Source: Halogeometricum borinquense DSM 11551
GTDB taxonomy: Archaea; Halobacteriota; Halobacteria; Halobacteriales; Haloferacaceae
DNA length: 32,000 bases
Direction of reading: 5' to 3'
NCBI RefSeq assembly: GCF_000172995.2
Contig: NC_014729.1
Span: 1,920,001 to 1,952,000 of the forward strand
Positions within the stretch are counted from its first letter, which is position 1. Every line of letters begins with the position of its first letter. The notes beneath the pieces were generated by a model, which was not told where the DNA came from, did not search any database, and was given only the letters and a program-made list of their open reading frames with translations. The position numbers and the translations under genes are program-made. Of the stretch, positions 8,242 to 30,213 are shown piece after piece.

Positions 8242-8724
8242 TCAGTTCTCAGCGACGGCGTTAACCGGCGAGATCCAGATGACGAGTTCGCCATCGCGCT
8301 TGATGACGCCCTCGATGGAGTCGTCTTTCTCTAACGGGGGTTCCTCGATTTCGTCCATCGAGACGCGGACGACTTGGTACACTTCGTCTACGAGCCACCC
8401 GATAGCGGCGTCGTCTTCGAACTTGTTCGAATCGAAGATGACGATACGCTTGGACTCGCCGTCGGCGGCATCGACGTTCAACAACGCCTTCGGGTTAACG
8501 ATGGACGTGGTTCGACCGCGCAGGTCCATCACGCCATCGACGTAGTCGGGGGCGTTCGGGACGGCAGTCAACGAACCTTTGTCCACGATTTCGGAGACGT
8601 ATTCGATATCGACGCAGTACGTCTCGTCCCCGAGTTTGAACTCCAGTACTTGTATCTCTCGAACGGACTCCTCGTCGGACTCGTCCGTGTTGGGTACGGC
8701 AGCAGTTTGTGGTTCCTGCGACAT
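8242..8724 (-). CDS. cheW: Chemotaxis coupling protein CheW
   Basis: Single CheW-like domain: QVLEFKLGDETYCVDIEYVSEIV ... VPNAPDYVDGVMDLRGRTTSIVN. ATG 8724 preferred; GTG 8754 is an alternative start. Confidence 0.9.
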   Translation of the reverse strand: MSQEPQTAAVPNTDESDEESVREIQVLEFKLGDETYCVDIEYVSEIVDKGSLTAVPNAPDYVDGVMDLRGRTTSIVNPKALLNVDAADGESKRIVIFDSNKFEDDAAIGWLVDEVYQVVRVSMDEIEEPPLEKDDSIEGVIKRDGELVIWISPVNAVAEN

Positions 8725-8785: not shown

Positions 8786-8839
8786 CATAAAGGTACGTAC
8801 CCGATTATCAGCCGTGATTCTCGCCGGGGAGCGTTTAAG
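8786..8839. promoter_or_regulatory. Divergent cheW / cheB-operon promoter sharing one 18-bp palindromic element
   Basis: ATTATC-AGCCGT-GATTCT at 8804-8821. Exactly 12 nt to the left is TTTATG (minus strand, 8786-8791); exactly 12 nt to the right is TTTAAG (plus strand, 8834-8839). Confidence 0.5.
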
Positions 8840-8887
8840 ACCCCTACTCAGGAAGAATAGTCATAGATGAGCGGTCAGAAAGCAGTC

Positions 8888-8938
8888 AGAACGGTACTGT
8901 CCGGACGCCGGCCGTTCGCCGGACTGCGGTACCGTTCT
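8888..8938 (+). promoter_or_regulatory. Extended hairpin in the predicted cheB-operon 5' leader
   Basis: AGAACGGTAC (8888-8897) pairs with GTACCGTTCT (8929-8938). Inner GTCCGG (8899-8904) pairs with CCGGAC (8919-8924). The apical part contains GCCGGC. Confidence 0.4.
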
Positions 8939-8976: not shown

Positions 8977-10161
8977 ATGTCTTCGGGGCGGGTCACAGTG
9001 AGCACCGCATCGGGGTCGAACACGGCAGACGGCACCACGCGTGCTGTCATCGTTGACGACTCACGATTCATGCGGACACTCATTCGCACCCTCCTCGAAG
9101 ACGGGGGTATCGACGTAGTCGCAGAGGCGTCTGACGGGGCTGCAGCTGTCGAAACTGTCACAGAACACGCTCCGGACGTCGTGACGATGGACATCGAGAT
9201 GCCCGAGATGAACGGCATCGAGGCGGTCGAAGCCATCATGGAGGACTGTCCGACGCCGGTGTTGATGCTCTCTGCACACGCCGAAGACGACGCCGACGTG
9301 ACGTTCGAGGCGCTCGATAAGGGTGCCGTCGATTTCGTCACGAAACCGGGTGGGGAAGTAACCTCCTCGATGCCGAGCGTCAAGCGCGAACTCGTCGAGA
9401 AGGTCCAGTCCGCTGCCGCAGTGGACCTCTCGGCGACCGAGCGAACCAAGGGTAACGTCACTACTGCGCCCTCGCGCGACAGTCAGACGGAGACAGCGAC
9501 GACGCAAACCGACCGGAGCCGCGAGCGTGAACAGACAACCTCGCCGGTGTCTCCGGAATCACGACTCAAGCGGTCGTTCCCCGACGTATCGACGCTCGTC
9601 ATCGGCGCGTCCACGGGCGGCCCGAACGTCGTCGAAGAAGTTCTCGGCGAGTTACCAGCGGACGCGAACCTCCGCATTCTCGTCGTCCAACACATGCCGG
9701 AAGGGTTCACTCGTCGGTTTGCCGACCGCCTCGACACGCGGTCGGCGTACAACGTCCAGGAGGCGACCGACGGTGAGAAAATCGGCGCTGGCGAGGCGCG
9801 CGTCGCGCCCGGCGGGTCACATCTCGTTGTTGACCGAGATCGCAGAGGCCAACTCACGCTGAAACTGACGGATACCAAACCGGTTCACGGCGTCAAGCCG
9901 GCTATCGATCTCACGATGGCATCGGCCGTCGAGACCGTCGATGGGCCGTTGGCTGGCGCTCTCCTCACCGGGATGGGACGCGACGGCGTGGACGGCATGG
10001 GCCGAATCCACGAGGCGGGCGGACACACGGTCGCACAGGACGAAGCAACGTCAGCGATTTTCGGGATGCCGATGCGGGCAATCGAAACGGGGTGCATCGA
10101 GGTCGTTGCCCCCGCGGAGAAAGTCGCATCGAGTATTCTGGACGGACTAACGGAGGACTGA
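8977..10161 (+). CDS. cheB: Chemotaxis response regulator protein-glutamate methylesterase CheB
   Basis: N-terminal receiver domain (VIVDDSRFMR ... DVVTMDIEMPEMNG ... DFVTKP), a Thr/Ser/Glu-rich linker, and a C-terminal methylesterase domain (IGASTGGP ... VVQHMPEGFT ... LTGMGRDG). Confidence 0.92.
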   Translation: MSSGRVTVSTASGSNTADGTTRAVIVDDSRFMRTLIRTLLEDGGIDVVAEASDGAAAVETVTEHAPDVVTMDIEMPEMNGIEAVEAIMEDCPTPVLMLSAHAEDDADVTFEALDKGAVDFVTKPGGEVTSSMPSVKRELVEKVQSAAAVDLSATERTKGNVTTAPSRDSQTETATTQTDRSREREQTTSPVSPESRLKRSFPDVSTLVIGASTGGPNVVEEVLGELPADANLRILVVQHMPEGFTRRFADRLDTRSAYNVQEATDGEKIGAGEARVAPGGSHLVVDRDRRGQLTLKLTDTKPVHGVKPAIDLTMASAVETVDGPLAGALLTGMGRDGVDGMGRIHEAGGHTVAQDEATSAIFGMPMRAIETGCIEVVAPAEKVASSILDGLTED

Positions 10162-10164
10162 ACC

Positions 10165-12660
10165 ATGGACGAGGAACTATACCAAGCATTCATTACCGAA
10201 TCCGAAGAGAGCATCACCCAACTGAACAATTCACTGCTCGAACTGGAGGCGAACCCCGACGATACGGAGGCCATCGACGACATCTTCCGGCAGGCCCACA
10301 CGCTGAAGGGCAACTTCGGTGCGATGGGCTTCGACAACGCCGCGACGGTCGCACACGCCGTCGAAGACCTGCTGGACGAGATCCGCCACGAGCGACTGGA
10401 GGTGACGCCCGACCGAATGGACCTCATCTTCGACGGGATGGACGAGATTCTGGACATTCTCCACGACATCGAAGAACACGGCGAGTCCAAGAGCGACCCG
10501 TCGGATCTCGTCGAGGAGATTCGCGCTGCCGCCGAAGGAGAGGGGGACGCAGCGGGAAACGAGGAGCCGGCGACGACTGAGGACACGTCTTCGCAGGGAG
10601 ACGACGCCCTCGCCGTCGCCGCAGAGACGGTAGACCCCGACAGCGACGAACTGGCCGACACGGAACTCCTCTACCACGCCGCTATCGAACTTGACGCGGG
10701 AGAGATGAAGGGCGTGGACGCGGGCCTGTTCCTTGGCGGTCTCCCGGACGACCTCGACGTAGTGGGGTCGTCACCGGACATCGACAGCATCGAAGATGGC
10801 GAGTTCGAGGACGGATTCACCCTGTTCATCGCCGGCACGCCCGAGTCGGAACTCGGCCCGCTTCTGGCCGACCAGTGGAAAGTCGAACACGCCGAACTCA
10901 CCGACGTTTCCGCCATCCTCGCTGACGATTTCGACCCTGACACGGTAGCCGAGACCGCCGACGGGACGGGCACCGAACCCGCAGACGAACCCGAAGCGGC
11001 CGAACCTGCTGTTGCGTCGGACTCCGCGTCGGATCCCGAATCCACTGACGAAGACGCAGCCGACACCGACGAGAGTGAGGACGGCGCGGTCGAACCCTCG
11101 GAGGCTGAAGCGGCCGTCGCCGCCGTCGAATCCGCTTACTCCGACTCCGAATCAGCGGACGGAAACGAGACGGACGCTGACGGCGTGGACGACTCGTCCG
11201 CCGACGAGACGACAGCCGGCACCTCCGACGGCGCATCCGCTGGAGCCGATTCGTCGGCCGCCGCAAGCGAGGAGACGGCCAACGGAGACACCGCCGAGGC
11301 GAGCGATACAGACGACTCCGACGATACCGACGACGGAGACGACGCTAGCGACGACGGTGGCAGTGACGACAGCGGGAGCGACGGTGACAAAAAGGAGTCG
11401 AAGAAGTCGGACAAAAAGGAGAAAGACCGGTCCATCTCCGCGGTCAAGTCCGTTCGCGTTGACGTCGGCCAACTCGACGAACTCCACGAACTCGTCGAGC
11501 AACTGGTTACCAGCCGTATCAAACTCCGGCAGGCGATGGAGGGAGAGGCCGACATGACGAGCGGACTCGATACGCTGGACGAGTTGGACAAGATCTCGAC
11601 GAACCTCCAGAACACGGTGATGGACATGCGTCTCATCCCGTTGAAGAAGGTGTTCGACAAGTTCCCGCGCATGGTCCGCGACATCGCGCGCGAACAGGAC
11701 AAGCGCGTCCGTTTCAAGGTCGAAGGCGAGGATATCGAACTCGACCGGACCATCCTCGACGAGATATCCGACCCGCTGATGCACGTTCTACGGAACGCCG
11801 TAGACCACGGCATCGAGCTGCCCGACGAACGTGAGGCAAACGGGAAGTCCCGAACCGGGACCGTCGAACTCGCCGCACGGCGCGAACACGACACGGTGGT
11901 TATCACGGTCTCCGACGACGGCAGTGGTATCAACGCGGACGCTCTCCGCGACAAAGTCGTCTCCGAGGGACTGGCAACGCGCGACGAACTGAACGAACTG
12001 CCGGATGAGGAGGTGTACGAGTACGTCTTCCACCCCGGTCTCTCGACCAACGACGAGATTACGGACGTGAGCGGCCGCGGTGTCGGCATGGACGTGGTGA
12101 AAACCACTGTCGAAGCGCTCGATGGCTCCGTAGGCGTGTCGAGTACCCCCGGCGAGGGGTCGGTGTTTACGATCCGACTTCCCGTCTCCGTCGCCATCAT
12201 CAAGGTGCTGTTCGTCCGCGTCGGCGAACGCGAGTTCGGCGTTCCCATCAAGTACATCGACGAGATTTCCCGTCGGCAAGCGGTCCAGACGGTCAACGGT
12301 GCGGAGGTCGTTGTCCACGAGGACGACATCTTCCCGCTCATTCGTCTCCGCGACGCTCTCGACGTGGACATCGACGAACGCGACAGCGGGATGATCGTAC
12401 GCATCCGCCCGGCCGACAGACAGGTCGCACTCCACTGCGATCACGTCACCCGACAGGAGGAAGTCGTTGTCACGCCGCTGCAAGGGCCGCTCAGCGGGAC
12501 CAACGGGCTGTCCGGTACGGCGGTCATCGGTGACGGGAACGTTATCCCTATCCTCGATGTGAGTACGCTGGAACTCCCTGAGGGCGGAAAACAGGCGATG
12601 CGCGAGTGGACGCCGCCATCGAATGAGGACTCGGGTGAAGTCGAGGAGGCGGCGGACTGA
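10165..12660 (+). CDS. cheA: Chemotaxis histidine kinase CheA with a long acidic linker
   Basis: Hpt domain with FRQAHTLKGNFGAMG, dimerisation region, HATPase boxes (HVLRNAVDHGIE, SDDGSGI, GRGVGMDVV) and a C-terminal CheW-like domain. 831 aa, including a ~170-aa Asp/Glu/Ser/Ala-rich low-complexity insert. Confidence 0.95.
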   Translation: MDEELYQAFITESEESITQLNNSLLELEANPDDTEAIDDIFRQAHTLKGNFGAMGFDNAATVAHAVEDLLDEIRHERLEVTPDRMDLIFDGMDEILDILHDIEEHGESKSDPSDLVEEIRAAAEGEGDAAGNEEPATTEDTSSQGDDALAVAAETVDPDSDELADTELLYHAAIELDAGEMKGVDAGLFLGGLPDDLDVVGSSPDIDSIEDGEFEDGFTLFIAGTPESELGPLLADQWKVEHAELTDVSAILADDFDPDTVAETADGTGTEPADEPEAAEPAVASDSASDPESTDEDAADTDESEDGAVEPSEAEAAVAAVESAYSDSESADGNETDADGVDDSSADETTAGTSDGASAGADSSAAASEETANGDTAEASDTDDSDDTDDGDDASDDGGSDDSGSDGDKKESKKSDKKEKDRSISAVKSVRVDVGQLDELHELVEQLVTSRIKLRQAMEGEADMTSGLDTLDELDKISTNLQNTVMDMRLIPLKKVFDKFPRMVRDIAREQDKRVRFKVEGEDIELDRTILDEISDPLMHVLRNAVDHGIELPDEREANGKSRTGTVELAARREHDTVVITVSDDGSGINADALRDKVVSEGLATRDELNELPDEEVYEYVFHPGLSTNDEITDVSGRGVGMDVVKTTVEALDGSVGVSSTPGEGSVFTIRLPVSVAIIKVLFVRVGEREFGVPIKYIDEISRRQAVQTVNGAEVVVHEDDIFPLIRLRDALDVDIDERDSGMIVRIRPADRQVALHCDHVTRQEEVVVTPLQGPLSGTNGLSGTAVIGDGNVIPILDVSTLELPEGGKQAMREWTPPSNEDSGEVEEAAD

Positions 12661-13490
12661 TGGCGCGAACTGACTCGTCGTCGGATCCGACGTTCCGAGA
12701 ACTGCTCGACTACGTGGAATCGTCGTTATCGTTTGCGACGAGTTCGTACAACGACGCGTACCTTGACCGGCGAATCTCTGCACGGATGCGACGACGCGGC
12801 GTCGAGAGCTACGACGAATATCAGTCGCTGCTCGACGGCGACGAAGAAGAACAGACGGCGTTGTTGAACGCGCTCAGCGTTAACGTCACCAGCTTCTTCC
12901 GCAACCCCGAGGTATGGGACGCCCTCAGAGAAGTTATCGCTGACATCGCTTCCGACGGGCGCGTCAACATCTGGAGCGCGGCCTGTTCGGACGGCCGCGA
13001 GGCATACTCGATGGCGATGCTGGCACACGACGACGACCGAATCGACCCGAACAAGGTGAAGATACTGGGAACGGACATCAAGCCTGAGATCATCCGCGCC
13101 GCACGCGCGGGCGAGTATCACGCCTCGGAGACGAACGACATTGAAGAGCAACTCGAACCGCTCTCTCAGAACAATCGGTACGTCGAACGCGATGGCGACA
13201 TCTACCGCGTGACCGACGAGGTTAAATCCCTCGTGTCGTTTCGAAAGCATGACCTCGTTCAAGAACGTCCGCCGGACACGTTCGACCTCGTGGTGTGTCG
13301 AAACCTGTTTATTTACATCAACAGTGAAGCTAAACAGGCAATATTCGATACGCTCGGATCGGCACTCACGCCGGACGGCTATCTCACTATCGGGATGACG
13401 GAGACGATTCCGCCGTCGTGCCGCGACCGGTTCGATCCGGTCGAGAAACGACTTAGAATCTACCGGAACGCGGCAAACTCGAATCCGTGA
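12660..13490 (+). CDS. cheR: Chemotaxis protein methyltransferase CheR
   Basis: CheR-type SAM methyltransferase: TSFFRNPEVWDAL, IWSAACSDGREAYSMAM, DLVVCRNLFIY. The start overlaps the cheA stop (TGATG). Confidence 0.92.
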   Translation: MARTDSSSDPTFRELLDYVESSLSFATSSYNDAYLDRRISARMRRRGVESYDEYQSLLDGDEEEQTALLNALSVNVTSFFRNPEVWDALREVIADIASDGRVNIWSAACSDGREAYSMAMLAHDDDRIDPNKVKILGTDIKPEIIRAARAGEYHASETNDIEEQLEPLSQNNRYVERDGDIYRVTDEVKSLVSFRKHDLVQERPPDTFDLVVCRNLFIYINSEAKQAIFDTLGSALTPDGYLTIGMTETIPPSCRDRFDPVEKRLRIYRNAANSNP

Positions 13491-13499
13491 AATAACACG

Positions 13500-14384
13500 A
13501 TGAAAGCTGGCGAGAAAAAGGTCGCAGACACGAACGGACGGTTCCTCCAAGTCAAGCGTGGAGGGCGGAATCTAAACGATGCAAATTGGGCGAACGGGCG
13601 CATCCTCCTTTCGAACCAGCGTCTCGTCCTCGCTGGTACTGGCGGTAAGCGGACCTTTCCACTCTCGTCGATAGAGCAACTCGGTGGCCGGTTCGACGTG
13701 AACCAGCGCATCGCAACTGTTTCCGACTACCTCGCACTCCACTACAACGACGGCGAAGACGTGGTTCTCGTCGCGCCCGCGGATTTCGAGGAGTTCGAAC
13801 TCGAACTGTACGGAGCGTTGCTCAACTCGACGCGGTTTCTCGTCCGTCACCCGGCAGTCGAGGGTGGCGTCGTTCAGAACACCGAGTGGGAGGGCGCGCG
13901 ACTGAAAGTCGAAGAGGACGCAGTCAGCATTGCGACGGTCAACGGATCGTTCGTCAACGTCCAGTTGGACGACATCGGTGACATCGAGATGGGTCGGCGG
14001 ACTGTCCGCGACGAATCTCGAGAAGTCATCGAAGTCGAGCACTCCGACGACGAGGGGACGAGTCTCCAGACGTACGTCTCCGGCCCAGAGCGTCCCGTGA
14101 ACATCCTCAAGTCGTTGTTCCAAATCGGCGAAGAGCAGTCCGAGACAGCACTCGAACTGTCACAACAGGACAAACAGGTGTTGATGGCGCTATACTCCGG
14201 TGTCTCTCCGTTCGATATCCCCGCGTTCCTCGGCATCGACGTAGACGAAGTCGAAGAGCTGTTCGTCCGACTCATCGACCACAACGTCCTTGATGAGGTA
14301 CGCATCCGCCACGAAGTCGAACTCAACGCCCGTGGCCGGTCTATCGCTGCTGACGCTATCGACGATCAAGGCGCGAACATGTGA
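13500..14384 (+). CDS. cheF: Archaea-specific chemotaxis adaptor CheF (DUF439 family), paralog 1
   Basis: 294-aa ORF directly after cheR. It is a paralog of the ORF at 14639-15775, sharing V(R/K)HPA..GG.V and a C-terminal LY(S)G ... (I/L)D..E.E helix-rich region. Size and context match CheF proteins, which link CheY-P to the archaellum. Confidence 0.75.
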   Translation: MKAGEKKVADTNGRFLQVKRGGRNLNDANWANGRILLSNQRLVLAGTGGKRTFPLSSIEQLGGRFDVNQRIATVSDYLALHYNDGEDVVLVAPADFEEFELELYGALLNSTRFLVRHPAVEGGVVQNTEWEGARLKVEEDAVSIATVNGSFVNVQLDDIGDIEMGRRTVRDESREVIEVEHSDDEGTSLQTYVSGPERPVNILKSLFQIGEEQSETALELSQQDKQVLMALYSGVSPFDIPAFLGIDVDEVEELFVRLIDHNVLDEVRIRHEVELNARGRSIAADAIDDQGANM

Positions 14385-14638: not shown

Positions 14639-15775
14639 CTAGACGTTGACATCCTCAATCTCTTCGTTGACGACGAAGCGGCCTTGCGGCGTGAGATCAC
14701 ACGGTAACTCCTCGTCTGTGATGAGGTCGTCGTCGAACAGTTCGGCGAGGCGGTGTTCGAGTTCGTCCTCCTCAAGGTCGAGCAGCGATGCGATATCGAT
14801 CTCCGGGCCGGTCGAGTACAGGCCAACGAGTACTTCCAGCGTTTCCTCTTCGATTTCCACGTCGCGCACGTCGCTTTTGATCCAGTGGTAGATCAGGCGG
14901 AGGTAACGTCCGAGGATGTTCATCTTCCGACGCGACCCCATCGAAATCTCGGTGGTGACGGTCTGTCCGTTTTCGACGTGCTGAACCGAGAGGACGAGTC
15001 GCTTTTCGTCGTCAATCGTTCGTTCGATGACCTCGAAGAAGATGACTGACGCGAGGTCGATCTCGAACGGCTCATCGCTCTCTCCGAGAACGTCGTTGCC
15101 GGGGAAGACGACTGACTCGTAATCGAGGTGCAGGCCAGTTTCTCGCTTCGGCGTGTCCATGACTCGCCCACCGACTTTGGCGGGATGTTTGACGAGCGTC
15201 GTCGATCCGTTCAGCGCCGCGCGGAACAGTAACAGCGAGAACTTCTCGATGGTCTCCCGATCGCCCCCGATGACCGTCGTCCGACGCCGGTTACCGACGA
15301 TATAACCGACCATCACGGTGTAGTCGAAGAACTCCTCTACTTCCGGCGGGACCTGTCCGACGGCAATGTCGAAGATGGAGGTGACGGGGACGACCGTCTT
15401 TGCCTTCGACGTGACGAGAATGAGCCGGTGCTCGCTCATCAGGACGCGGCCTTTCACCGGGTCGAAGGTCGCGTCTCCACCGGCGACGAAGTTCGCCACG
15501 AAATCGACGATAATGGATTCGCCGTTCTTCGATTTGCGAAGTCGCCGCTTCTTCTCGGCCTCAGTCTCCGGTTCCTCCTCCTCTCGTTTCTTCTGCCGGT
15601 ACGCTTCGAGCAGCTCTTCGCTCTCTGCACTCGTTGGGGCAGTTTCCTCGGCTGGCGAGCCTCCTGTTCCCCCATCAGTGCGGAGCACTCTGTCCTGACC
15701 ACCACCAGTATCGGTGGGTGAGCAGCGGGCATTCGAGTTCGATACACCAGGCTTAGAGTCACTATCATCCGTCAT
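14639..15775 (-). CDS. cheF: Archaea-specific chemotaxis adaptor CheF (DUF439 family), paralog 2, with ~85-aa disordered N-terminal extension
   Basis: 378-aa ORF. Core is homologous to 13500-14384 (LILVTSKAKTVVPVTSIFDI; LVKHPAKVGGRVM). Its ATG overlaps the arlJ stop as ATGA (15772-15775), making it the last gene of the arl operon. Confidence 0.78.
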   Translation of the reverse strand: MTDDSDSKPGVSNSNARCSPTDTGGGQDRVLRTDGGTGGSPAEETAPTSAESEELLEAYRQKKREEEEPETEAEKKRRLRKSKNGESIIVDFVANFVAGGDATFDPVKGRVLMSEHRLILVTSKAKTVVPVTSIFDIAVGQVPPEVEEFFDYTVMVGYIVGNRRRTTVIGGDRETIEKFSLLLFRAALNGSTTLVKHPAKVGGRVMDTPKRETGLHLDYESVVFPGNDVLGESDEPFEIDLASVIFFEVIERTIDDEKRLVLSVQHVENGQTVTTEISMGSRRKMNILGRYLRLIYHWIKSDVRDVEIEEETLEVLVGLYSTGPEIDIASLLDLEEDELEHRLAELFDDDLITDEELPCDLTPQGRFVVNEEIEDVNV

Positions 15776-17523
15776 ACGCTAATCAGTGCTCCTGCGAGCG
15801 ATGAGGTGGCGACGGCACTCGCACAGCCGATCCATACGAGCACCACGAAGTGGAGGTAGGCGTTCGCCTTGTGTCCGCCGTCAACCATCCGAATCATCAA
15901 CGACGACAACAGCGCGTTGAAGAGGATGATGAGTGCGAGTAAGTATTCGATCAGCGGGATATCGTAGACGCCCGCGTAAATGAGTTGCCCGAACTGCATC
16001 TGTCCGAGGTTCATCTTCGTCGAGAACGAGGCCAGAATCTCTACGACCTCCAGGCCGATGAAGAACGCGAACGACGCTGACGCCGTGATACCGTAGAGGA
16101 CGCCGATAAGCGTAACCGTCGCTTGTTCACGCTGACGGCGAAGTTTGACAATCTCGTTCATGTTGCTTGAGATGAGTTCGCCGAGTTGCTTCGGCGTCCC
16201 ACCCATCTGGCGGCCGATGTTGTACATCTCACTGAACTTCTGAATGAGGTAGGAACTCGCTTCGGCGGTGAAGAAGAACCACGACCGAGTCGGGCCGATC
16301 CGCATGTTGAGGCGGACGTACAACCGGTCGATCTCCCGAGAAAGGACACCGAAGTCCTTCGTCCGGAGCGTCTTCAGGACGGCGGTCGTCGTACTCTGCT
16401 TTGCACTCTCGGAGGCACCCAGCGCGCGGATAAATCCGGGGTACTCCTCGTCACGCTCTTTGATACGGTTCTCGTGCCGCCGGGCGATGATTCCCGGAAT
16501 CGCCAAGGGCGTGAGAGGGGCGGCGATGAGTAACGGGATAGGCGTATCGAGCATGACCGACTGCACGGACTGTCCAATCGAGGTGAATCCAGCCGTTCCG
16601 AGGGCAAGGATGCCGACCAAGACGAACGAGAGCGCAACGGCACCGTAAAGTGCGATGTCTATCTGCCGGTCGGCCTTCGTCCGGTATTCGCTTTGGACGT
16701 ACCAGAGCGGGTCGTACGGCGACATCGTCTTGATGACGTAGTAGAACCCGAGTTGGACGAAGACGAACAGGACGATGACTGCGGCGATGGTCAACGTTGC
16801 GTCGGTCCCAGTGAGGATTGGCAGGACGATTGCGTTGATGACTGCGAACGTCATCGACAGAATCATCGAGAGGTAGAGGTCCTTCATGACCTCGAGGTTC
16901 CCGAGTGCGCTCTCGTAGACGGTGATGTACTTTTGGACCATTGCGCTCTGCTCACCGAGAAGGAAGTCGTCAATATCCTGCCCCGCGCTGAGCGAGTACG
17001 CGAGCCTGTCGAGGAAGTCTGCAAGCGGCTTCGATGGAACCTGCCGGGCACGACGCTCACAGGCGTCGTCAAGCGACTGGTTCCACGTATCAACCAGTTC
17101 GGTGATGCGGCGCATCTCGATGGCGAGTTCGCCGTACTCCTCTTCTTTCCCCAGTTGTCTGAACACCGACACCCGGTCGATGTTCGTCGTCGAGAGGACA
17201 GTCATGTGGGTGATGAGGAGATGCAGTTGGTTCTCTAACCCTCGGCGTTGCTCTTCGACGAGGAGACGCGGGTACAACACCGCGCCAATGAGCATGAGCG
17301 CGCCTAAAAGGAAGATCGGGATACGGACGAGTAACGGCAACGGAAGCGCAATCGCACCGGCGAGCGATGCTATGAAGAACACCACCGCAGGGAGCAACAC
17401 CACCAGACCGTAGCGTCTGATGGGCATCGGCATCCGTTCGTACGACTCCAGTACGGAGTCAAGGAACGCTCTGACTTGCTTCGTCTGCGTTCCGAACTCT
17501 TCTCCGGTACTCGCCTCGGACAT
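15772..17523 (-). CDS. arlJ: Archaellum platform membrane protein ArlJ (FlaJ)
   Basis: 583-aa polytopic membrane protein of the GspF/TadC-like type, immediately downstream of arlI. Confidence 0.9.
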   Translation of the reverse strand: MSEASTGEEFGTQTKQVRAFLDSVLESYERMPMPIRRYGLVVLLPAVVFFIASLAGAIALPLPLLVRIPIFLLGALMLIGAVLYPRLLVEEQRRGLENQLHLLITHMTVLSTTNIDRVSVFRQLGKEEEYGELAIEMRRITELVDTWNQSLDDACERRARQVPSKPLADFLDRLAYSLSAGQDIDDFLLGEQSAMVQKYITVYESALGNLEVMKDLYLSMILSMTFAVINAIVLPILTGTDATLTIAAVIVLFVFVQLGFYYVIKTMSPYDPLWYVQSEYRTKADRQIDIALYGAVALSFVLVGILALGTAGFTSIGQSVQSVMLDTPIPLLIAAPLTPLAIPGIIARRHENRIKERDEEYPGFIRALGASESAKQSTTTAVLKTLRTKDFGVLSREIDRLYVRLNMRIGPTRSWFFFTAEASSYLIQKFSEMYNIGRQMGGTPKQLGELISSNMNEIVKLRRQREQATVTLIGVLYGITASASFAFFIGLEVVEILASFSTKMNLGQMQFGQLIYAGVYDIPLIEYLLALIILFNALLSSLMIRMVDGGHKANAYLHFVVLVWIGCASAVATSSLAGALISV

Positions 17524-17525
17524 CG

Positions 17526-19193
17526 TTACAACCTCGCCATATCGAACGGGAGGCCCTCCGCGCCGTCCCGTTGGAAGTCCTCGATGAGTTCGTTCACTTC
17601 GTGGTAGCCAGTGATGTTCTCTTGGATGGCGCGGCGGACGATTTCAGCACGGTACTCAACGTCATCGTAGATCTTCCGCGTGTCGTCGTACCCGAGGAGG
17701 GTCGCGATCTTCTCCTCCATGATGAAGGAGTTGTTCCGTCCCTGGAACACGATTTCGTCATCGACGGGGTCCCAGTAGAACGCCTCGCGCGTGACGACGC
17801 CGCCCATCTCCTTCGAGTAGCCTTCGATCTCCTGCACGCTGGTCACGCGGCGGAGCGTATCGTTGCCCCGTTTGACCCGGTTTTGGAACAGCGCAATGTC
17901 ACAGTTCGACATGAACGTCTCGGGGACATTGATCGGGTCGCCAGTGAAACGTTGAATCATCGAGACGATGTCGGATGCGTGGAACGTCAGCATCACCGGG
18001 TGACCGGTCTGTGCTGCCTGGAACGCCATCCGACCCTCTTCACCACGAACCTCCCCCACGATGATGTAGTCGGGGCGCGAACGCAGCGCGGCCGCAACGA
18101 GGTCGAACATGTCAACCTCAGAGTCCGCACCGCGGCCTTCGCGCGTGAGGAGTTGCTGCCACGTATCGTGCGGCGGCAGCACCTCCGCGGTGTCCTCTGC
18201 GGTGTAAATCTTCGAGTCTTGCGGGATAAACGAGAGGATCGCGTTGAGCGTCGTCGTCTTCCCAGATGCCGTCTCGCCAACAACGAAGATGGTCCGCTCG
18301 TTCTCTAACGCCATCCAGAGGTAGCCGCACAACTCCGGCGAGAGCGTCCCCCACTTCGTAATCTGGAATATCGACAGCGGAACGTCATCGCCCTGACGGA
18401 TGGTGAGGCTCGACCCTTTCAGCGACACGTCGTCGGAGTAGATGATGTTGATACGCGACCCGTCCGGGAGCGTCGAGTCCACGATGGGGTGTGCGTCGGA
18501 AACGGGGTCACCGATGCGTTCACCCATATTCCGAAGCCAGTTGTCGAACTGGTCTTTCGAGCCGAACTCGACTGTCGTCTCCAACAGACCGTAGACACCG
18601 TGGTCCACGTCGACCTGTTGGGGACCGATCACGTGAATGTCCTCGTTCGCCGGGTCGCGCATGATGGGTTCGAGCGGCCCCAGACCTACGATGTCGCGCA
18701 CCAAGCGGTACTGTATCTTCTCGTAGGTCTCCTCTGTGATCTGCATGGGCCCAATATCCAACCGTTGGATGAGTTCGTGGACCCGGCCCGTTTGTTTGCC
18801 TTCGAGGACGACAATCTCCTCCAGCAACTCCTCGATACGGTCCTCGTACTCCACGTCACCCTCCGGTGCGGGCTTCGATACGGAACGTTCGAGCAGTTTG
18901 TCTTTCACCTGATCGAATACCTCCTGTTCCTCCTCGTCGAGTTCCGGTTCGATAGCGTAGTACTTCGTCGTCTCCCCGAAGTTGCCGTACACTTGGGCGT
19001 AGATTGGCCCGCCGAGGTGGTAGATGATGTTCGGACGGCGAGATTCGTACTCACCCGACGCTTCCTCGACCAGCATCGGGAACTCCCCGGTTATCTGCCG
19101 GAAGCGCTTGAGGTGATCGCGCAGGTGCCCCCAGCGCATCGCGTGCTGTTTCAGGTCGTCGGACAGTTTCGCAGAGCCGTGTTCGGTCGCCAT
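17526..19193 (-). CDS. arlI: Archaellum motor/assembly ATPase ArlI (FlaI)
   Basis: 555-aa type II/IV secretion-family ATPase. Walker A VVGETASGKTTTLNA, Asp and His boxes (IIVGEVRGEE ... TGHPVMLTFHA). The stop of arlH abuts its ATG. Confidence 0.95.
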   Translation of the reverse strand: MATEHGSAKLSDDLKQHAMRWGHLRDHLKRFRQITGEFPMLVEEASGEYESRRPNIIYHLGGPIYAQVYGNFGETTKYYAIEPELDEEEQEVFDQVKDKLLERSVSKPAPEGDVEYEDRIEELLEEIVVLEGKQTGRVHELIQRLDIGPMQITEETYEKIQYRLVRDIVGLGPLEPIMRDPANEDIHVIGPQQVDVDHGVYGLLETTVEFGSKDQFDNWLRNMGERIGDPVSDAHPIVDSTLPDGSRINIIYSDDVSLKGSSLTIRQGDDVPLSIFQITKWGTLSPELCGYLWMALENERTIFVVGETASGKTTTLNAILSFIPQDSKIYTAEDTAEVLPPHDTWQQLLTREGRGADSEVDMFDLVAAALRSRPDYIIVGEVRGEEGRMAFQAAQTGHPVMLTFHASDIVSMIQRFTGDPINVPETFMSNCDIALFQNRVKRGNDTLRRVTSVQEIEGYSKEMGGVVTREAFYWDPVDDEIVFQGRNNSFIMEEKIATLLGYDDTRKIYDDVEYRAEIVRRAIQENITGYHEVNELIEDFQRDGAEGLPFDMARL

Positions 19194-19942
19194 TATGCAA
19201 CACTCCTGCTTTCGATGACGATGCCGATTCCCGACCGGACCGAGAACCCGATTCGGTCACCGACCTGTTCGCCCATCCCCGCAAAGCGCTTCACGAAGAT
19301 GTTCCGACGCACGTCGTTCCCGACCTCGACCATCTCCAACTGAAGGTACACGTCCGCGATAGACCGGAACGGTCCGATAGCGTCCTCGTCCACAGTGGAG
19401 GGGTCAACGGTGAGTATGATAGTCTTGTTCTTCGTCGTCAGCTCGCGGAAGAACGAGATAATTTCGAGAGCGGCCTGTCGCTCTTCGTTCTGACGAACGA
19501 GTGCTTCGAACTGCGGGTCGTTACGCAGGATGGCGTCGAACGTGTCGATGATGGTCACGTCCGCCTCCCACAGCGTCTCGGCCTCCATGAGTCGCCGGAG
19601 GAGTTGTTTTCGCTCGGAGGCGTTTCCGCCGGTTAGCGCGCCGGAGGCGTCTATCTCGGCCGGGATGAAAAGCACTTCCTCGTTGAGCAAGGGCTTCACC
19701 ATATCGTACTCCAGCGAGTGCATCTGGTCGAGGAAGCCACGGACGCCCAACTCCGTGGAGATGAGGGACGTAACGATATCCTCCTGACTGAACCCGTAGG
19801 TAAACCGCTGTGAGAGGACACTCTTTCCGGCACCATAGTCCCCTTCGATGAGGACGATGGCCCCGCGTGGGATCCCTCCACCGAGTTCTTTCTGCAACCG
19901 GTCGTGCTGTTGTAACCCGAGTGAGAATTGATTTGATTTCAT
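19193..19942 (-). CDS. arlH: Archaellum KaiC/RecA-like ATP-binding protein ArlH (FlaH)
   Basis: 249 aa with Walker A GDYGAGKS; lies between arlG and arlI. Confidence 0.9.
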   Translation of the reverse strand: MKSNQFSLGLQQHDRLQKELGGGIPRGAIVLIEGDYGAGKSVLSQRFTYGFSQEDIVTSLISTELGVRGFLDQMHSLEYDMVKPLLNEEVLFIPAEIDASGALTGGNASERKQLLRRLMEAETLWEADVTIIDTFDAILRNDPQFEALVRQNEERQAALEIISFFRELTTKNKTIILTVDPSTVDEDAIGPFRSIADVYLQLEMVEVGNDVRRNIFVKRFAGMGEQVGDRIGFSVRSGIGIVIESRSVA

Positions 19943-19945
19943 AGA

Positions 19946-20398
19946 TTACGTCCTGAATCTGAACGTCTCTTCGTCGCCGTCAACGACGAGTTTCACGCGA
20001 TGGTCTTCGTTATCAGCCAACGACAGGTCGCCGATGACGACTTTGACCACGCCGTGCGGTCCCCAGTGGGAGTCGCCGTCGGCGACAGTAACCGTGACAT
20101 TGGTTCGGTACTGTGCGTTCACGATGACGTCGAACGTCTGTCCAGTCGCCGGAAGGGTTCGCGTACCGGTGTTCTTCACGTACAGCGTGAGGTTCCCGGA
20201 ACCGGAGTCGTACACTGACGACTCGGAGTCGCTGATAATTTCTACGTCGGTACGGATGTTCTTCGACACGTCCGCTCCCCGATCATCGAGGGCGCTACTG
20301 ATGTCCGTCACCGTGTTGATAAGAACGCCCGAAACGCCTGCAGCGATAACGAGGCTGGCGATGAACAGGATGAGCGTCGGTGCGGAGACGTCTGCCAT
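19946..20398 (-). CDS. arlG: Archaellum stator-associated protein ArlG (FlaG)
   Basis: 150 aa. An N-terminal TM helix (APTLILFIASLVIAAGVSGVL) is followed by a beta-rich soluble domain (LTLYVKNTGTRTL). Position is between arlF and arlH. Confidence 0.8.
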   Translation of the reverse strand: MADVSAPTLILFIASLVIAAGVSGVLINTVTDISSALDDRGADVSKNIRTDVEIISDSESSVYDSGSGNLTLYVKNTGTRTLPATGQTFDVIVNAQYRTNVTVTVADGDSHWGPHGVVKVVIGDLSLADNEDHRVKLVVDGDEETFRFRT

Positions 20399-20401
20399 CG
20401 G

Positions 20402-20854
20402 TTAGACCTCCTCCAGCGTCGAGTTCGAGTCAGTGACGCCGTTTTCGGTGACTATCTTGACCCGTTTCGGTTCGTTGTCTACGGTGAGTTCGATCAGGAG
20501 CGTCTCGTTGGGTGCCCAGATGTCGGTGCCCGACGTACCATCGACAGTTCGCGTGGACCCGCTCGGCTGCTGATACTCGTTATTCACGAGGACCGATGTG
20601 TCGTTGGCCGACAGCGTCAGCGTTCCCGTATTCTTGACACGGATGTCCATCGGATAGGTTCCGCTGTTGTTGCTGTAGGTGACCGACGTGACGTTTATGC
20701 CCGTGTTGCGCCGTTCGAGCAGGTGTTCGCTGTTCGAGTCCTCAGCGTCGTTGAGCATTTCTGTCGTGTCCGACACAGTGGTGTACAGCGTCCCCGTAGC
20801 GATGAGTACGCCGAGGAAGATGATCGCCGTGGAACCACTAACGCCGAAGCCCAC
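20402..20854 (-). CDS. arlF: Archaellum stator-associated protein ArlF (FlaF)
   Basis: 150 aa. An N-terminal TM helix (STAIIFLGVLIATGTL) is followed by a beta-sandwich-like domain (IRVKNTGTLTL). It overlaps the arlCDE stop by 17 nt. Confidence 0.8.
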   Translation of the reverse strand: MGFGVSGSTAIIFLGVLIATGTLYTTVSDTTEMLNDAEDSNSEHLLERRNTGINVTSVTYSNNSGTYPMDIRVKNTGTLTLSANDTSVLVNNEYQQPSGSTRTVDGTSGTDIWAPNETLLIELTVDNEPKRVKIVTENGVTDSNSTLEEV

Positions 20855-22208: not shown

Positions 22209-22361
22209 CCGTCTCGCCTCCGTTGTGGGTGGGCCGATCGGCCCCGCTCACCGGTCAACGAAACGCGGCCCTCACACCGCTGTTCCGTCGGTTCCCGATC
22301 GGATGGGCACTCCGACGTCGGGGAAACAGGTAGCATTGACTCAATTGTACAGTCATCAGTA

Positions 22362-22397
22362 CAAGAATGTTGCCACCAAATTATCAGCCGTGATATG
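22362..22397 (-). promoter_or_regulatory. arlCDE-operon promoter module (palindrome + 12 nt + weak TATA-like box)
   Basis: Gene-oriented CATATC-ACGGCT-GATAAT (22380-22397), then ttggtggcaaca, then TTCTTG (22362-22367). The 14-mer TTATCAGCCGTGAT is identical to the cheW/cheB site. Confidence 0.4.
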
Positions 22398-22452
22398 GCA
22401 TCACGACAGATCCGTTTGCTCTTTTGCGAACGCTTCAGACCGTGTGAGAAGA

Positions 22453-22510: not shown

Positions 22511-23257
22511 ATGCCAGAGTTCGTAAAAACCGGAGTCGAAGGCCTCGACTCCATCCTAAACGGCGGCATCGTCAAGAACGCCGCGGTACTCATCAGCGGC
22601 AACCCCGGTACGGGGAAGAGTATCCTCGGTCTGCAGTATCTCTACAACGGCGTCGACAAATACGACGAAGGAGGAATCTACCTCACCTTCGAGGAAGCCG
22701 AAGACGACATCCAAGAGGCGGCAGAGTCCATCGGATTCGACCGGTGGTCGGAGTACGTCGAGGAAGGGAAGATCAAAGTGTACGATAAGCGCACGCTACT
22801 TCGTGACGGCGACTTCTCTTCGACGCTCGACCGGATCCTCGGCGACCTCCAGGACACGTCGTACGACCGACTTGTCCTCGACTCGCTAACGATGTTCCAA
22901 CTGTTCTTCGAAGACGAAAAGGAACAACGACAGTACCTCCTCAAGTTCATCGACATCCTGAAAGATAGCGACCTGACCTCGCTTTTGACTACCGAACAGT
23001 CTGCTATCTTCCCCGAAACGGAGATTGGACTGGAGAACTTCCTCACCGACGGGAACATCTACCTGATACAGAGCCCCGCCGGTGCGACGAGTAATCGGTA
23101 CGTCTGGGTGGCGAAGATGCGGAAACAGTCGATCAAGAATTCGATGTTCCCCCTCGAAATCAACGAGGGCGGGATTCAGATATACGAACAAGCGGCTGGC
23201 TTCTCGATGGTCGGTGAGTCGCCGCCGTGGTTCGGCGACGAGGGCGACTTAGAGTAG
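22511..23257 (+). CDS. Single-domain KaiC/RecA-superfamily ATPase
   Basis: 248 aa: TGVEGLDSILNGGI, Walker A GNPGTGKS, Walker B-like RLVLDSLT. Divergent from the arl operon and convergent with the archaellin genes. Confidence 0.85.
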   Translation: MPEFVKTGVEGLDSILNGGIVKNAAVLISGNPGTGKSILGLQYLYNGVDKYDEGGIYLTFEEAEDDIQEAAESIGFDRWSEYVEEGKIKVYDKRTLLRDGDFSSTLDRILGDLQDTSYDRLVLDSLTMFQLFFEDEKEQRQYLLKFIDILKDSDLTSLLTTEQSAIFPETEIGLENFLTDGNIYLIQSPAGATSNRYVWVAKMRKQSIKNSMFPLEINEGGIQIYEQAAGFSMVGESPPWFGDEGDLE

Positions 23258-23284
23258 TCTGATAAGGACGGTTGATCTGCGTAC

Positions 23285-23310
23285 CGATAATCGTATCACG
23301 GTGATTATCG
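23285..23310. repeat. 26-nt near-perfect palindrome built from GATAAT/ATTATC half-sites, in the convergent gap
   Basis: CGATAATCGTATCACGGTGATTATCG: 8 perfect base pairs plus 2 wobble pairs around a 6-nt centre. Lies between the KaiC-like stop (23257) and the archaellin stop (23511). Confidence 0.5.
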
Positions 23311-23510: not shown

Positions 23511-24149
23511 TTAGAGTTCGATCGGGTCGCCCGCGTTCTTACCGGCGAGTTGCTGGGGCATCGTCAGGATAACCTGCGTCGTGCCACCCGTACGACTCGT
23601 GATTTCGAGCGTGACCGAGTCACCGGTGTTGAGACCGTTCGAGTGACCCGCGTCGTTCGTACCGGCTTCGATATCCGAGGTGTTGATGGTTGCAACGTAG
23701 CGGTCGTTCATGCTGTTGAGAACACCGAACGATCCGTCATCGTCGGTGACCTTATCCAGACCAAACTCGTTAGCGTCGGCGGTCTTAACCGTTCCGTCGC
23801 CGTCACTCGTTGTCTGGTTCGTCAGCGTCTGCACCGTATCCGAACTGAGGTATTTCACCGACGTCTCGTTCATGTCCACACTGCTGGACCCGGCTGCCAG
23901 ACGGACGGTCATGTTGATGCTACGAATCGTGTCGTCACCGACGACGCCGTGGGTGTTGAGCACCTCGACGCGGTTGGTGACCTTGTTTACGCTCTGTTCT
24001 CCCGCGTCTTCTGCAGTCGCCTGCAGGAAGCCGGCCGTGTTCACGAGGACCCCCGCGGCGATTGCCGCGACGAGGACCATCGCGATGAACACGATGAGCG
24101 TACCGATACCGACCTGACCGCGGTCGTCGTTGTTGAATTTCTCGAACAT
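23511..24149 (-). CDS. Archaellin (ArlA/ArlB family; FlgA/FlgB in haloarchaeal naming), short type, duplication unit 1
   Basis: [43 protein letters not shown] is a class III signal peptide with an RG/QVGIG cleavage context and a hydrophobic N-terminal helix. ATG 24149 chosen over TTG 24158. Confidence 0.93.
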
Positions 24150-24161
24150 TTTATTCAATCC

Positions 24162-24842
24162 TTAGAGAGCGATAGGGTCGTTGTCATTCTTGCCCGCGAG
24201 CTGCTGGGGCATCGTCAGGATGACCTGCGTCGAACCACCGGAACGGCTCGTAATCTCGAGCTTCACGGAGTCGCCAGTGCTGACACCGGCGCCGTTACCT
24301 TCAACGACCGACGTGTTGATGATCATCTCGTAGCGATCGGCCTGTCCGCTCAGCACGGGGAACGAGGTGTCGTCACCGTCTTCCAGCGCGTACGCCGCGA
24401 ACTCCGTGTTGTTCAGACCGTCGTTGCCGAGCGCCGCTGCGCCATCGTACTTACTGACGTTGCCGAGCTTCGTGCCGTCGGCGTCCGTCGTCGCGTTGTC
24501 GTACACGAGGTTCCGTGCCGTGGTCCCACTCACGTACTTGATGGTGGTGTCTTCGAGTGAGACACTGCCGGAACCAGCGGCGAGTCGAACCGTCAGGTTC
24601 AGACTGTCGACCGCGAGACCGTCACCGGTATCGTTGACGATACCGTGCTCGCTAACGACGTCAACACGGTTAGTGACCTTATTCACACTTTCCTGCCCCG
24701 CGTCCTGTGCAGTCGCCTGCAAGAACCCGGCCGTGTTCACGAGGACCCCGGCAGCGATTGCTGCGACGAGGACCATCGCAATGAACACGATGAGCGTACC
24801 GATACCGACCTGACCGCGGTCGGTGTCAAATTCTTCGAACAT
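24162..24842 (-). CDS. Archaellin, long type, duplication unit 1
   Basis: [42 protein letters not shown]. Several N-x-S/T sequons (NLT, NAT, NVS, NNT, NTS). Start trimmed to ATG 24842. Confidence 0.93.
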
Positions 24843-24862
24843 AGGTTGTATATCTCCAGTTC

Positions 24863-24894
24863 GGTCCCCCACCCCCTCGCCGGAGGAGAAGACC
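24863..24894 (-). promoter_or_regulatory. 32-nt 5'-leader hairpin of archaellin unit 1
   Basis: mRNA sense GGUCUUCUCCUCC-GGCGAG-GGGGUGGGGGACC. A pyrimidine arm pairs with a purine arm; 12 of 13 stem positions pair, 4 of them as G-U wobbles. Identical to the copy at 26347-26378. Confidence 0.4.
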
Positions 24895-24921
24895 TACGAT
24901 GGTGACAATCAGATTGACATA

Positions 24922-24957
24922 CATAATCCTACGGCTCTAATTATCCAATTTGATATC
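24922..24957 (-). promoter_or_regulatory. Archaellin unit-1 promoter module
   Basis: Gene-oriented GATATC-AAATTG-GATAAT (24940-24957), then tagagccgtagg, then ATTATG (24922-24927). Confidence 0.45.
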
Positions 24958-25000
24958 TAGAAGAAGAGTTCCGAAAGGCGATACGAGAGCGTCGGCGAAC

Positions 25001-25636
25001 TTAGAGTTCGACCGGGTCGCCCGCGTTCTTACCGGCGAGTTGCTGGGGCATCGTCAGGATGACCTGCGTCGTGCCACCCGTGCGGCTCGTTATCTCGAGC
25101 GTCACCTGTTCTCCGGTCTTGAGACCCTTGTCGTGGTTGGCGCTGTCGCCCGCTTCGACCTTGGTCGTGTTGATAGTGACGCCGTAACGGTCGTTCATGC
25201 TGTTGAGCACGCCGAACGATCCGTCATCGTCCGTCACCTCAGTGAGGGCGAATTCGTCGGAGTCGGCCTCTTGAATCAGGCCCTCCGAATCGTCGTCGGT
25301 CTGGTTCGTCAGCGTCTGCACCGTCGTCGCGCTGAGATACTTCACCGACGTCTCATTCATATCCACACTGCTGGAACCGGCCGCCAAGCGGACGGTCATC
25401 TGGATGTTGCGAATCGTGTCGTCGCCAACCTCGCCGTGGGTGTTGAGCACCTCGACGCGGTTGGTGACCTTGTTCACACTTTCTTGTCCGGCGTCTTCTG
25501 CAGTCGCCTGCAGGAAGCCGGCCGTGTTCACGAGGACCCCCGCGGCGATTGCCGCGACGAGGACCATCGCGATGAACACGATGAGCGTACCGATACCGAC
25601 CTGACCGCGGTCGTCGTTGTTGAATTTCTCGAACAT
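25001..25636 (-). CDS. Archaellin, short type, duplication unit 2
   Basis: Same N-terminus as 23511-24149 and the same C-terminal [26 protein letters not shown]; the central domain is diverged. Confidence 0.93.
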
Positions 25637-25648
25637 TTTATTCAATCC

Positions 25649-26326
25649 TTAGAGAGCGATGGGGTCGTTGTCGTTCTTGCCCGCGAGCTGCTGGGGCATC
25701 GTCAGGATGACCTGACTGGAACCGCCGGAGCGGCTCGTAATCTCGAGCTTCACGGATTCACCAGTGCTGAGTCCTTTCGTCGGGGTGTCTTCAACGACAG
25801 ACGTGTTGATGACGATTTCGTAGCGGTCGCCCTGATTGCTGAGAACAGGGAACGACGTATCGTCACCGTCTTCGAGTGCGTACGCCGTGAATTCCGTGTT
25901 GTTCAGACCGTCGCTACCGAAGTTCTTGTCGTTCGCACTGACGTTACCGAGCGACGTGCCGTCGGCGTCCGTCGTCGCGTTGTCGTACACGAGGTTCCGA
26001 GCCGTGCTATCACTGACGTACTTGATGGTGGTGTCTTCGAGTGAGACACTGCCGGAACCAGCGGCGAGTCGAACCGTCAGGTTCAGACTGTCAACAGTGA
26101 GTTCATTGGCTTCGTCGTTGACGATACCGTGGGTGCTGACAACGTCAACACGGTTGGTGACCTTATTCACACTTTCCTGTCCTGCGTCCTGTGCAGTCGC
26201 CTGCAAGAACCCGGCCGTGTTCACGAGGACCCCCGCGGCAATTGCCGCGACGAGGACCATCGCAATGAACACGATGAGCGTACCGATACCGACCTGACCG
26301 CGATCGGTGTCAAATTTTTCGAACAT
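25649..26326 (-). CDS. Archaellin, long type, duplication unit 2
   Basis: [20 protein letters not shown] ... C-terminus [30 protein letters not shown]. Paralog of 24162-24842. Confidence 0.93.
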
Positions 26327-26346
26327 GTGTTGTATATCTCGAGCTT

Positions 26347-26378
26347 GGTCCCCCACCCCCTCGCCGGAGGAGAAGACC
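26347..26378 (-). promoter_or_regulatory. 32-nt 5'-leader hairpin of archaellin unit 2
   Basis: Same 32-mer as 24863-24894. It starts ~3 nt after the TATA-predicted TSS and ends 20 nt before ATG 26326. Confidence 0.4.
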
Positions 26379-26405: not shown

Positions 26406-26441
26406 CATAACGCTACGGTTCAAATTATCTTCGGTGATAAC
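26406..26441 (-). promoter_or_regulatory. Archaellin unit-2 promoter module
   Basis: Gene-oriented GTTATC-ACCGAA-GATAAT (26424-26441), then ttgaaccgtagc, then GTTATG (26406-26411). The 16-mer TTATCTTCGGTGATAA is identical to the arlD site. Confidence 0.5.
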
Positions 26442-26573
26442 GGACCACCGGCACGAGGATGAATAAATTCTATGCGCACACGTGAGCACGTGCAACTGTT
26501 CGTTAGCAATTAGCAGAGATGAAAACGAAGGAGGGTGACGAGGACAGCGTGCGGGTGAGTTTCTGGTCGGGGA

Positions 26574-27759: not shown

Positions 27760-27795
27760 CATATCAGCGCTGATAATGGGGGGGAAGGGTTTATA
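27760..27795 (+). promoter_or_regulatory. cheY-cheC-cheD promoter module
   Basis: CATATC-AGCGCT-GATAAT (27760-27777; TATCAGCGCTGATA is a perfect 14-nt palindrome), then gggggggaaggg, then consensus TATA box TTTATA (27790-27795) ~27 nt before ATG 27820. Confidence 0.55.
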
Positions 27796-27819
27796 CCCGA
27801 TTTCCAGGAAAGAAGGAGC

Positions 27820-30177: not shown

Positions 30178-30213
30178 GTTATCTTCGGTGATAATCACGG
30201 GGGCAGGTTTATC
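30178..30213 (+). promoter_or_regulatory. arlD promoter module
   Basis: GTTATC-TTCGGT-GATAAT (30178-30195), then cacgggggcagg, then TTTATC (30208-30213). Same spacing and G-rich spacer as the cheY module. Confidence 0.5.

Follow-up and report, generated by a model that had tools for sequence, protein, structure and literature searches.

The 32,000-nt stretch of the Halogeometricum borinquense DSM 11551 chromosome analyzed here (hereafter, the window) comprises a haloarchaeal motility island and, in its first 8 kb, unrelated genes, as determined from Pfam scans of long open reading frames (ORFs; table 1). The closest relative is Halogeometricum limi, whose ArlI has 96% identity with the one encoded in the window. 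Intergenic regions upstream of che and arl transcription units have a composite element in which an 18-bp palindrome is followed by a spacer of 12 nt and a TATA-like hexamer. A preliminary description listed the element at eight sites, and all of the sequences that it quoted are present in the window at their positions.

Table 1. Genes and composite elements in the window. Boxes are palindrome-spacer-hexamer elements (predicted CsmR boxes), named with their hexamer and the unit downstream; scores are from the position weight matrix described in the text.
Feature	Position	Strand	Score (bits)	Remarks
usp, mscS, DUF5059/cupredoxin protein, permease	first 8 kb			non-motility genes
cheW	8242-8724	-		divergent from cheB
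Two-fold symmetric divergent promoter, 54 bp	8786..8839	both	23.9 toward cheB; 19.9 toward cheW	one palindrome, ATTATCAGCCGTGATTCT, 8804-8821
cheW/cheB half-sites	8806-8809; 8816-8819			TATC; GATT
cheW TATA, TTTATG	8791..8786	-		12 nt from palindrome
cheB TATA-like hexamer, TTTAAG	8834-8839	+		12 nt from palindrome
cheB-cheA-cheR-cheF	8977-14384	+
Second cheF, then arlJ-I-H-G-F-CDE	14639-22208	-
Box + TTCTTG, arlCDE-arlF-G-H-I-J operon	22362..22397	-	20.7	palindrome 22380-22397
KaiC-like gene, positional orthologue of cirA (HVO_1212)	22511-23257	+		Pfam KaiC ATPase, 2.8e-51; synteny
Four archaellin genes	23511-26356	-		two pairs, 24872..23511 and 26356..25001
Box + ATTATG, archaellin pair 24872..23511	24922..24957	-	28.4	best score in the window
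Box + GTTATG, archaellin pair 26356..25001	26406..26441	-	25.0
csmR orthologue, 112-aa winged helix-turn-helix (wHTH) protein	26574-26912	-		Pfam HTH_20/HTH_24; presumed binder of the boxes
DUF7500 gene	between csmR and cheY
Box + TTTATA, cheY-cheC-cheD	27760..27795	+	27.5	apparently leaderless, ATG at 27820
cheY-cheC-cheD	27820-29949	+
Box + TTTATC, arlD-like gene	30178..30213	+	25.7
arlD-like gene	30284-31327	+

The palindrome is strongly overrepresented and confined to intergenic DNA. Across the window, ATC-N6-GATAAT has six matches versus 0.09 expected from whole-window dinucleotide shuffles, and TATC-N6-GATA also has six, versus 0.12 expected. Because intergenic DNA is richer in A/T, the pattern test was repeated on intergenic sequence alone (2,567 bp, 55% GC, 2,000 Markov-1 simulations), where the six matches to ATC-N6-GATAAT compare with 0.018 expected. 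There is no palindrome match in the 29 kb of coding sequence of the window. All six palindromes are intergenic and have GATAAT toward the gene, with a T/A-rich hexamer exactly 12 nt beyond. Five of the six are exact matches to TATC-N6-GATA, and the cheW/cheB palindrome carries GATT. Flanking bases A6 and T11 are both kept at cheY, arlCDE, and cheB/cheW, and one side is missing at the arlA and arlD sites.

The combination of palindrome, 12-nt spacer, and hexamer is exactly the ChIP motif of CsmR of Haloferax volcanii. The element is already known from this sister genus, where it was studied by ChIP-seq, RNA-seq, and genetics, and its identification in the window is a confirmation and not a discovery. 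CsmR, a winged-helix protein of 13 kDa, is the product of HVO_1209, a gene located upstream of arlA1 (Nussbaum et al., PLoS Genet June 2026, PMC13286277; preprint, bioRxiv 10.64898/2026.02.03.703544, February 2026). Its ChIP-seq motif is ~34 bp, promoter-proximal, and semi-palindromic (TATCA-N4-TGATA), adjoins the TATA box, is present in 50 of 65 CsmR peaks and missing from the other 15, and has a consistent position relative to peak summits (PMC13286277). Targets include HVO_1203, 1207, 1210, 1213, and 1224/1225, corresponding to arlD-side, cheY, arlA1, arlCE, and cheB/cheW (PMC13286277). The CsmR regulon is wider than motility, with 65 genes at high-confidence ChIP peaks, including a peak adjoining rdfA (HVO_2174), a shape gene that is raised, as is sph3, in a csmR deletion strain; KaiC-like CirA (HVO_1212) is a partner regulator (PMC13286277). 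In a literature search for earlier descriptions of the motif, only this paper and its preprint were found. The statement in the preliminary description that no regulator or operator had been described for haloarchaeal archaellum and chemotaxis genes is thus out of date since February (preprint) and June 2026.

Synteny, gene length, sequence identity, and a primer match indicate that the wHTH gene of the window, previously put forward as encoding the candidate binder, is the csmR orthologue. Like HVO_1209, it is 339 bp long, and its neighbors are also those of HVO_1209, with cheD-cheC-cheY and an HVO_1208-like gene on one side and two arlA genes followed by cirA on the other. The encoded protein is 84-88% identical to those of syntenic Haloferax genes. 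The published primer for the downstream arm of the csmR deletion matches Haloferax sp. Q22 (L015) directly after the stop codon of the orthologue, and Haloferax marisrubri has identical copies of two ChIP motifs where they would be expected. The presumed cognate regulator of the boxes is encoded in the window itself, next to the archaellin genes, in line with what the preliminary description had suggested.

A position weight matrix (PWM) derived independently of the motility promoters recovers the same sites. The PWM was built from 44 H. volcanii CsmR ChIP motifs located outside the arl/che cluster (ungapped, 34 nt); no orthologous promoter contributed. When both strands of the window were scanned (64 kb), seven of the previously listed sites occupied ranks 1-7, all directed gene-ward and scoring 19.9-28.4 bits, against a background with a mean of -22.8 bits (sd of 8.7). 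The next match (18.4 bits) comes from reading one of the palindromes in reverse. In the intergenic control, the seven matches of at least 19 bits compare with 0.0025 expected. Selection on the core only still yielded a T/A peak at motif positions 30-34. Intergenic regions of the non-motility genes score 5 bits or less. The repeated element is thus confirmed for seven of the eight sites. Because the two archaellin sites reflect a paralogous duplication, independent promoters amount to five palindromes (six promoters), not eight.

Boxes of the window correspond to CsmR peaks of H. volcanii. Those of cheY, arlA, arlCDE, and cheB match their H. volcanii orthologues even in the TATA variants that mark individual promoters (TTTAT, GTTAT, and TTCTT). 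The cheY box is almost identical to peak 133 (HVO_1207, cheY; ATATCAGCCTTGATAATGGGGAGGAAGGGTTTAT in the peak vs. ATATCAGCGCTGATAATGGGGGGGAAGGGTTTAT in the window), and the cheW/cheB element is near-identical to its orthologue, peak 138 (HVO_1224/1225; TTATCAGCCGTGATTATCCCCGCCGAGTGTTTAT vs. TTATCAGCCGTGATTCTCGCCGGGGAGCGTTTAA). The box at 26406..26441 is orthologous to peak 134 (HVO_1210, arlA1), with which it has the stretch CCGTAGCGTTAT in common. The arlCDE box is orthologous to peak 135 (HVO_1213), and the motifs of both end in TTCTT, unusual in place of a TATA. The box of the arlD-like gene is the positional counterpart of peak 132 (HVO_1203), and related loci score 21-27 bits at the same place. 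The two archaellin boxes of the window are paralogues with nearly identical leaders and different central spacers (CAATTT vs. TTCGGT). The occurrence of the same 34-bp motif at orthologous peaks agrees with the original proposal of a motility-regulon operator positioned just upstream of the BRE/TATA.

The arlCDE region differs among genera in what the palindrome faces. In the window (22209-22361), the arlCDE box predicts a start at ~22337; the first start codon available, at 22208, is ~129 nt farther downstream, and the median distance between motif end and aligned start in related loci is 153 nt. These distances imply that the leader is long and conserved or else that the start has been misplaced. 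Read toward cirA, the arlCDE palindrome of Haloferax loci also faces a TATA-like AATTT/TATTT in register (15.6-20 bits; e.g., L013 6775-6808, L037 6745-6778), and cirA may therefore share the arlCDE box in that genus. In the window, unlike in Haloferax, the palindrome read toward cirA (22380-22413) is without an in-register TATA.

The spacer between cheW and cheB has a single palindrome for two promoters. The center of the palindrome is at 8812/8813 and that of a TATA hexamer is 24 bp away on either side; the hexamers are thus in register in both directions, and the bidirectional arrangement claimed for this spacer is correct. All related loci with coverage of the spacer have this layout. At the predicted transcription start of cheB, ~26 nt after its TATA-like hexamer, a block with sequence TAGATGAGCGGTCA (8863-8877) is conserved from Halogeometricum to Haloferax and could represent either an initiator or an element of the 5' leader. 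A peptide encoded by a leaderless ORF at 8867 is unlikely, as the ORF is out of frame with cheB (start at 8977), 44 codons long, and arginine-rich, with conservation of about the first four codons. A hairpin in the cheB 5'-UTR (8888-8938) is no stabler than shuffled sequence (z = -0.8).

In H. volcanii, mapped transcription start sites (TSSs) place the downstream hexamer where a TATA box is expected. Primary 5' ends in H. volcanii have been mapped by dRNA-seq (Babski et al. 2016, PMC4983044). Relative to these, the 34-nt motif ends at -26, -25, and -26 for HVO_1201, HVO_0227, and HVO_1410, respectively, so the downstream hexamer occupies -30..-25, the canonical TATA position, as the preliminary description had argued. 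In the same register, half-sites are at approximately -58..-55 and -48..-45 and the dyad center is near -52, close to the value of -50 proposed earlier. Applied to the window, this register predicts starts at about 8761 (-), 8865 (+), 22337 (-), 24897 (-), 26381 (-), 27820 (+), and 30238 (+). In the window, 24 nt separate the cheY hexamer from the ATG, which begins 25 nt after it, as expected for a leaderless mRNA, and in 32 loci the distance of the cheY ATG to the downstream hexamer stays at 25-27 nt (median of 26 nt from motif end). At HVO_1410 (peak 145, among the most enriched), TATC and GATA are 7 nt apart instead of 6, and the 12-nt spacing of GATAAT to TATA is kept; the half-site nearer the TATA seems to be the one that fixes the register.

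The region between the cheY TATA and its ATG has an imperfect dyad of its own, GATTTCC-A-GGAAAG (27796-27812; GATTTTCGGAAA in Haloferax). It is located at about -20..-9 and is conserved in more than 30 loci. CGATTT is also found after the cheW TATA, as is ACCCGAT after the TATA of two other promoters, Haloferax cheB and HVO_0227. The dyad near the cheY TSS could be a second operator or an element of the promoter class.

Boxes are conserved at orthologous promoters across genera. We searched 44 ArlI-anchored loci (881 kb) with the PWM, scoring as a match any site of at least 15 bits. There are 231 matches versus two in Markov controls. A match is present in upstream regions of cheY (32 of 33), cheB (24 of 25), cheW (16 of 16), and arlCDE (32 of 35), as well as at 37 of 43 archaellin operon starts. 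None of the 64 upstream regions of cheF genes and none of the four of permease genes has a match. Boxes are found in seven genera (Halogeometricum, Halopelagius, Halobellus, Haloferax, Salinigranum, another Haloferacaceae genome, and Halomicrococcus), and CsmR of Halomicrococcus is only 59% identical. When cheY upstream regions were stacked on the ATG, with no use of the motif, conservation set in only at about -62. The sequence from there toward the gene contains a conserved block with constant TATC and GATA and a freely variable center of four bases. Positions C5 and G12 are invariant in the box. In four distant loci (Haloglomus, Natronomonas, Natrialbaceae, and Halococcoides), neither a strong box nor csmR was found within the range examined.

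The eighth of the listed sites, upstream of csmR (26936-26971, minus strand), is not a CsmR box. It has a single half-site and its score of 3.1 bits is background; the best PWM score anywhere in the csmR-DUF7500 spacer of the window is 4.6 bits. Because the site scores so low and is not conserved (one of 34 csmR upstream regions in related loci has a match), autoregulation of csmR is unsupported in Halogeometricum. In Halobellus (L006-L012, L031, L036, and L043), a TATC-N6-GATA-like core is located ~57 nt upstream of the csmR ATG (e.g., GTATCAGCTGTGATATCC), in the csmR/DUF7500 spacer and without an in-register TATA. Neither the window nor Haloferax has this core, which suggests autoregulation of csmR in Halobellus or, alternatively, regulation of the DUF7500 gene there. 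A weak match (26492-26525, minus strand; 14.3 bits; TTTTCATCTCTGCTAATTGC...) is located in the window between the archaellin box and the stop codon of csmR. The spacer between the convergent cirA and last archaellin genes (23275-23309) has an inverted repeat, GATAAT-N12-ATTATC, around TATCACGGTGAT, of which the half-sites are one base closer than those of a CsmR box and the PWM score is only 12.8 bits. The H. volcanii counterpart of this spacer has an antisense RNA, hvo_1211s, and a RosR site.

The elements are very probably operators for the winged-helix CsmR encoded in the window, with binding in this organism deduced from the H. volcanii system. A factor other than CsmR, such as another wHTH protein or a TFB/TBP paralogue like the CsmR-regulated TFB variant HVO_0226, could in principle recognize the palindrome, with CsmR cross-linked indirectly. 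Evidence for CsmR in H. volcanii consists of ChIP-seq and a motif, and the paper reports no EMSA or footprint (PMC13286277), hence an indirect association is formally possible. The motif is also welded to the BRE/TATA at a fixed register, as expected of a promoter-class element, and HVO_0226 is itself a target of CsmR, de-repressed in both csmR and cirA deletions. However, the motif is in 50 of 65 peaks and at a consistent position at CsmR summits, a palindrome with half-sites 10 bp apart fits a wHTH dimer and not TFB, and csmR and box co-occur across genera, with both missing from the four distant loci in the range examined. We therefore regard recognition by another factor as improbable.

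Readings in which the palindrome is not an operator fare worse. The hexamers ATTATC and GATAAT are A/T-rich and TATA-like, and isolated GATAAT is more frequent in the window than expected (14 occurrences vs. 4.7), as would be the case if the hexamers were TATA boxes of additional or divergent promoters. But mapped TSSs at three H. volcanii CsmR-box promoters are 25-26 nt after the downstream TTTAT and not after GATAAT, which rules out GATAAT itself as the TATA box, the cheY ATG keeps its distance from the downstream hexamer in 32 loci, and invariant C5 and G12 and dyad symmetry are alien to a TATA box. This makes the possibility very remote. That the sites resemble each other by chance, or by duplication of promoters without function, is effectively refuted. 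The two archaellin promoters are clearly paralogous copies, but the other promoters have nothing in common except the box, the six pattern and seven PWM matches far exceed those expected in intergenic-composition controls, and the box is kept across genera while its flanks diverge.

Under the preferred reading, in which CsmR binds the boxes, a dimer would contact the TATC and GATA half-sites, the centers of which are 10 bp apart, or one helical turn. This spacing would place the wHTH dimer on one face of the helix. The register is fixed, with 24 bp between the centers of palindrome and TATA, and the site would extend from about -59 to -44, abutting the BRE/TATA of each che/arl promoter. An effect on recruitment of TFB/TBP is likely given that the site abuts the BRE, a view shared by the authors of the CsmR study (PMC13286277). 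At cheW/cheB, one dimer site would serve two mirror-image promoters.

The sign of regulation is less straightforward. In H. volcanii, deletion of csmR abolishes motility, yet arl/che transcripts are up (log2FC of ~+0.7 to +0.9), and overexpression of csmR leads to hypermotile rods (PMC13286277). HVO_0227, which adjoins one of the most enriched peaks, is up ~40-fold in a csmR deletion and ~80-fold in a cirA deletion (PMC13286277). The authors of that study keep activator, repressor, and dual functions all possible (PMC13286277). The preliminary description noted that the position of the palindrome is typical of archaeal activator sites; an activator role is in doubt, given that the csmR deletion in H. 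volcanii raises target transcripts and yet abolishes motility. We suggest that CirA-dependent dampening of these promoters is the best current reading, with activation possible at other growth stages. On a further reading, which we consider rather unlikely, the box would be more than a site for repression or activation and, with its welded BRE/TATA, would define a distinct promoter class conserved from Haloferacaceae to Halomicrococcus. A CsmR dimer bound 24 bp upstream of the TATA would serve such promoters as a specificity factor that can be switched, and at cheW/cheB a single dimer might coordinate two mirror-image pre-initiation complexes, possibly with a dedicated TFB paralogue and CirA.

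Until 2026, no answer had been given to how haloarchaea control their archaellum and chemotaxis genes, and the window does not present a new kind of system. It and its relatives indicate that the CsmR box architecture is not peculiar to H. volcanii, each box being conserved across seven or more genera. Such conservation supports CsmR as a general regulator of motility and shape in the group. Conservation across genera and the symmetric geometry of the divergent promoter exceed the content of the H. volcanii paper. What is added here is modest and comprises the seven-genus conservation of each box, the symmetric cheW/cheB promoter, the lack of an autoregulatory box in the genus, and the HVO_1410 spacer. 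For the design of binding and spacing experiments, the loci offer natural variation in which half-sites are invariant, the center is free, and the register is fixed.

Regulators of other archaea resemble CsmR in fold or in position. Phr is a heat-shock repressor that binds across the TSS, and its operators differ from CsmR boxes. Phr and PH1932-type archaeal wHTH proteins (PDB 2P4W and 1ULY) are the nearest solved folds for CsmR; Foldseek matches CsmR to Phr (PMC13286277). In a sequence search with CsmR against the PDB, PH1932 was the top match, though marginal and not significant (E = 0.25). EarA sites are a repeated 6-bp consensus and not a TATC/GATA dyad, and the dyad of the window is likewise not an EarA-type repeat. 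EarA is a clear activator, whereas targets of CsmR rise upon deletion of csmR. Like CsmR, EarA of Methanococcus maripaludis is a wHTH protein that binds just upstream of the BRE, at the arlB2/fla promoter, and it is thought to aid TFB recruitment; the two are unrelated, with no similarity in sequence or structure, and an EarA-like regulator is absent from H. volcanii (PMC13286277). Sulfolobus acidocaldarius combines dedicated regulators of the archaellin promoter (ArnR/ArnR1) with post-translational phosphorylation in the Arn network, paralleling the proposed CirA-CsmR axis. ArnR and ArnR1 are membrane-bound activators from a different phylum, and neither their motif nor their protein family is common to CsmR.

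With the CsmR system of H. volcanii, by comparison, the window has in common the core TATCA-N4-TGATA, the 34-bp composite with TATA 12 nt after GATAnn, the target promoters, and a regulator that adjoins the archaellin genes with KaiC-like cirA nearby. The system in the window, known here from its sequence, differs in belonging to another genus and in having two archaellin operons, each with its own box.
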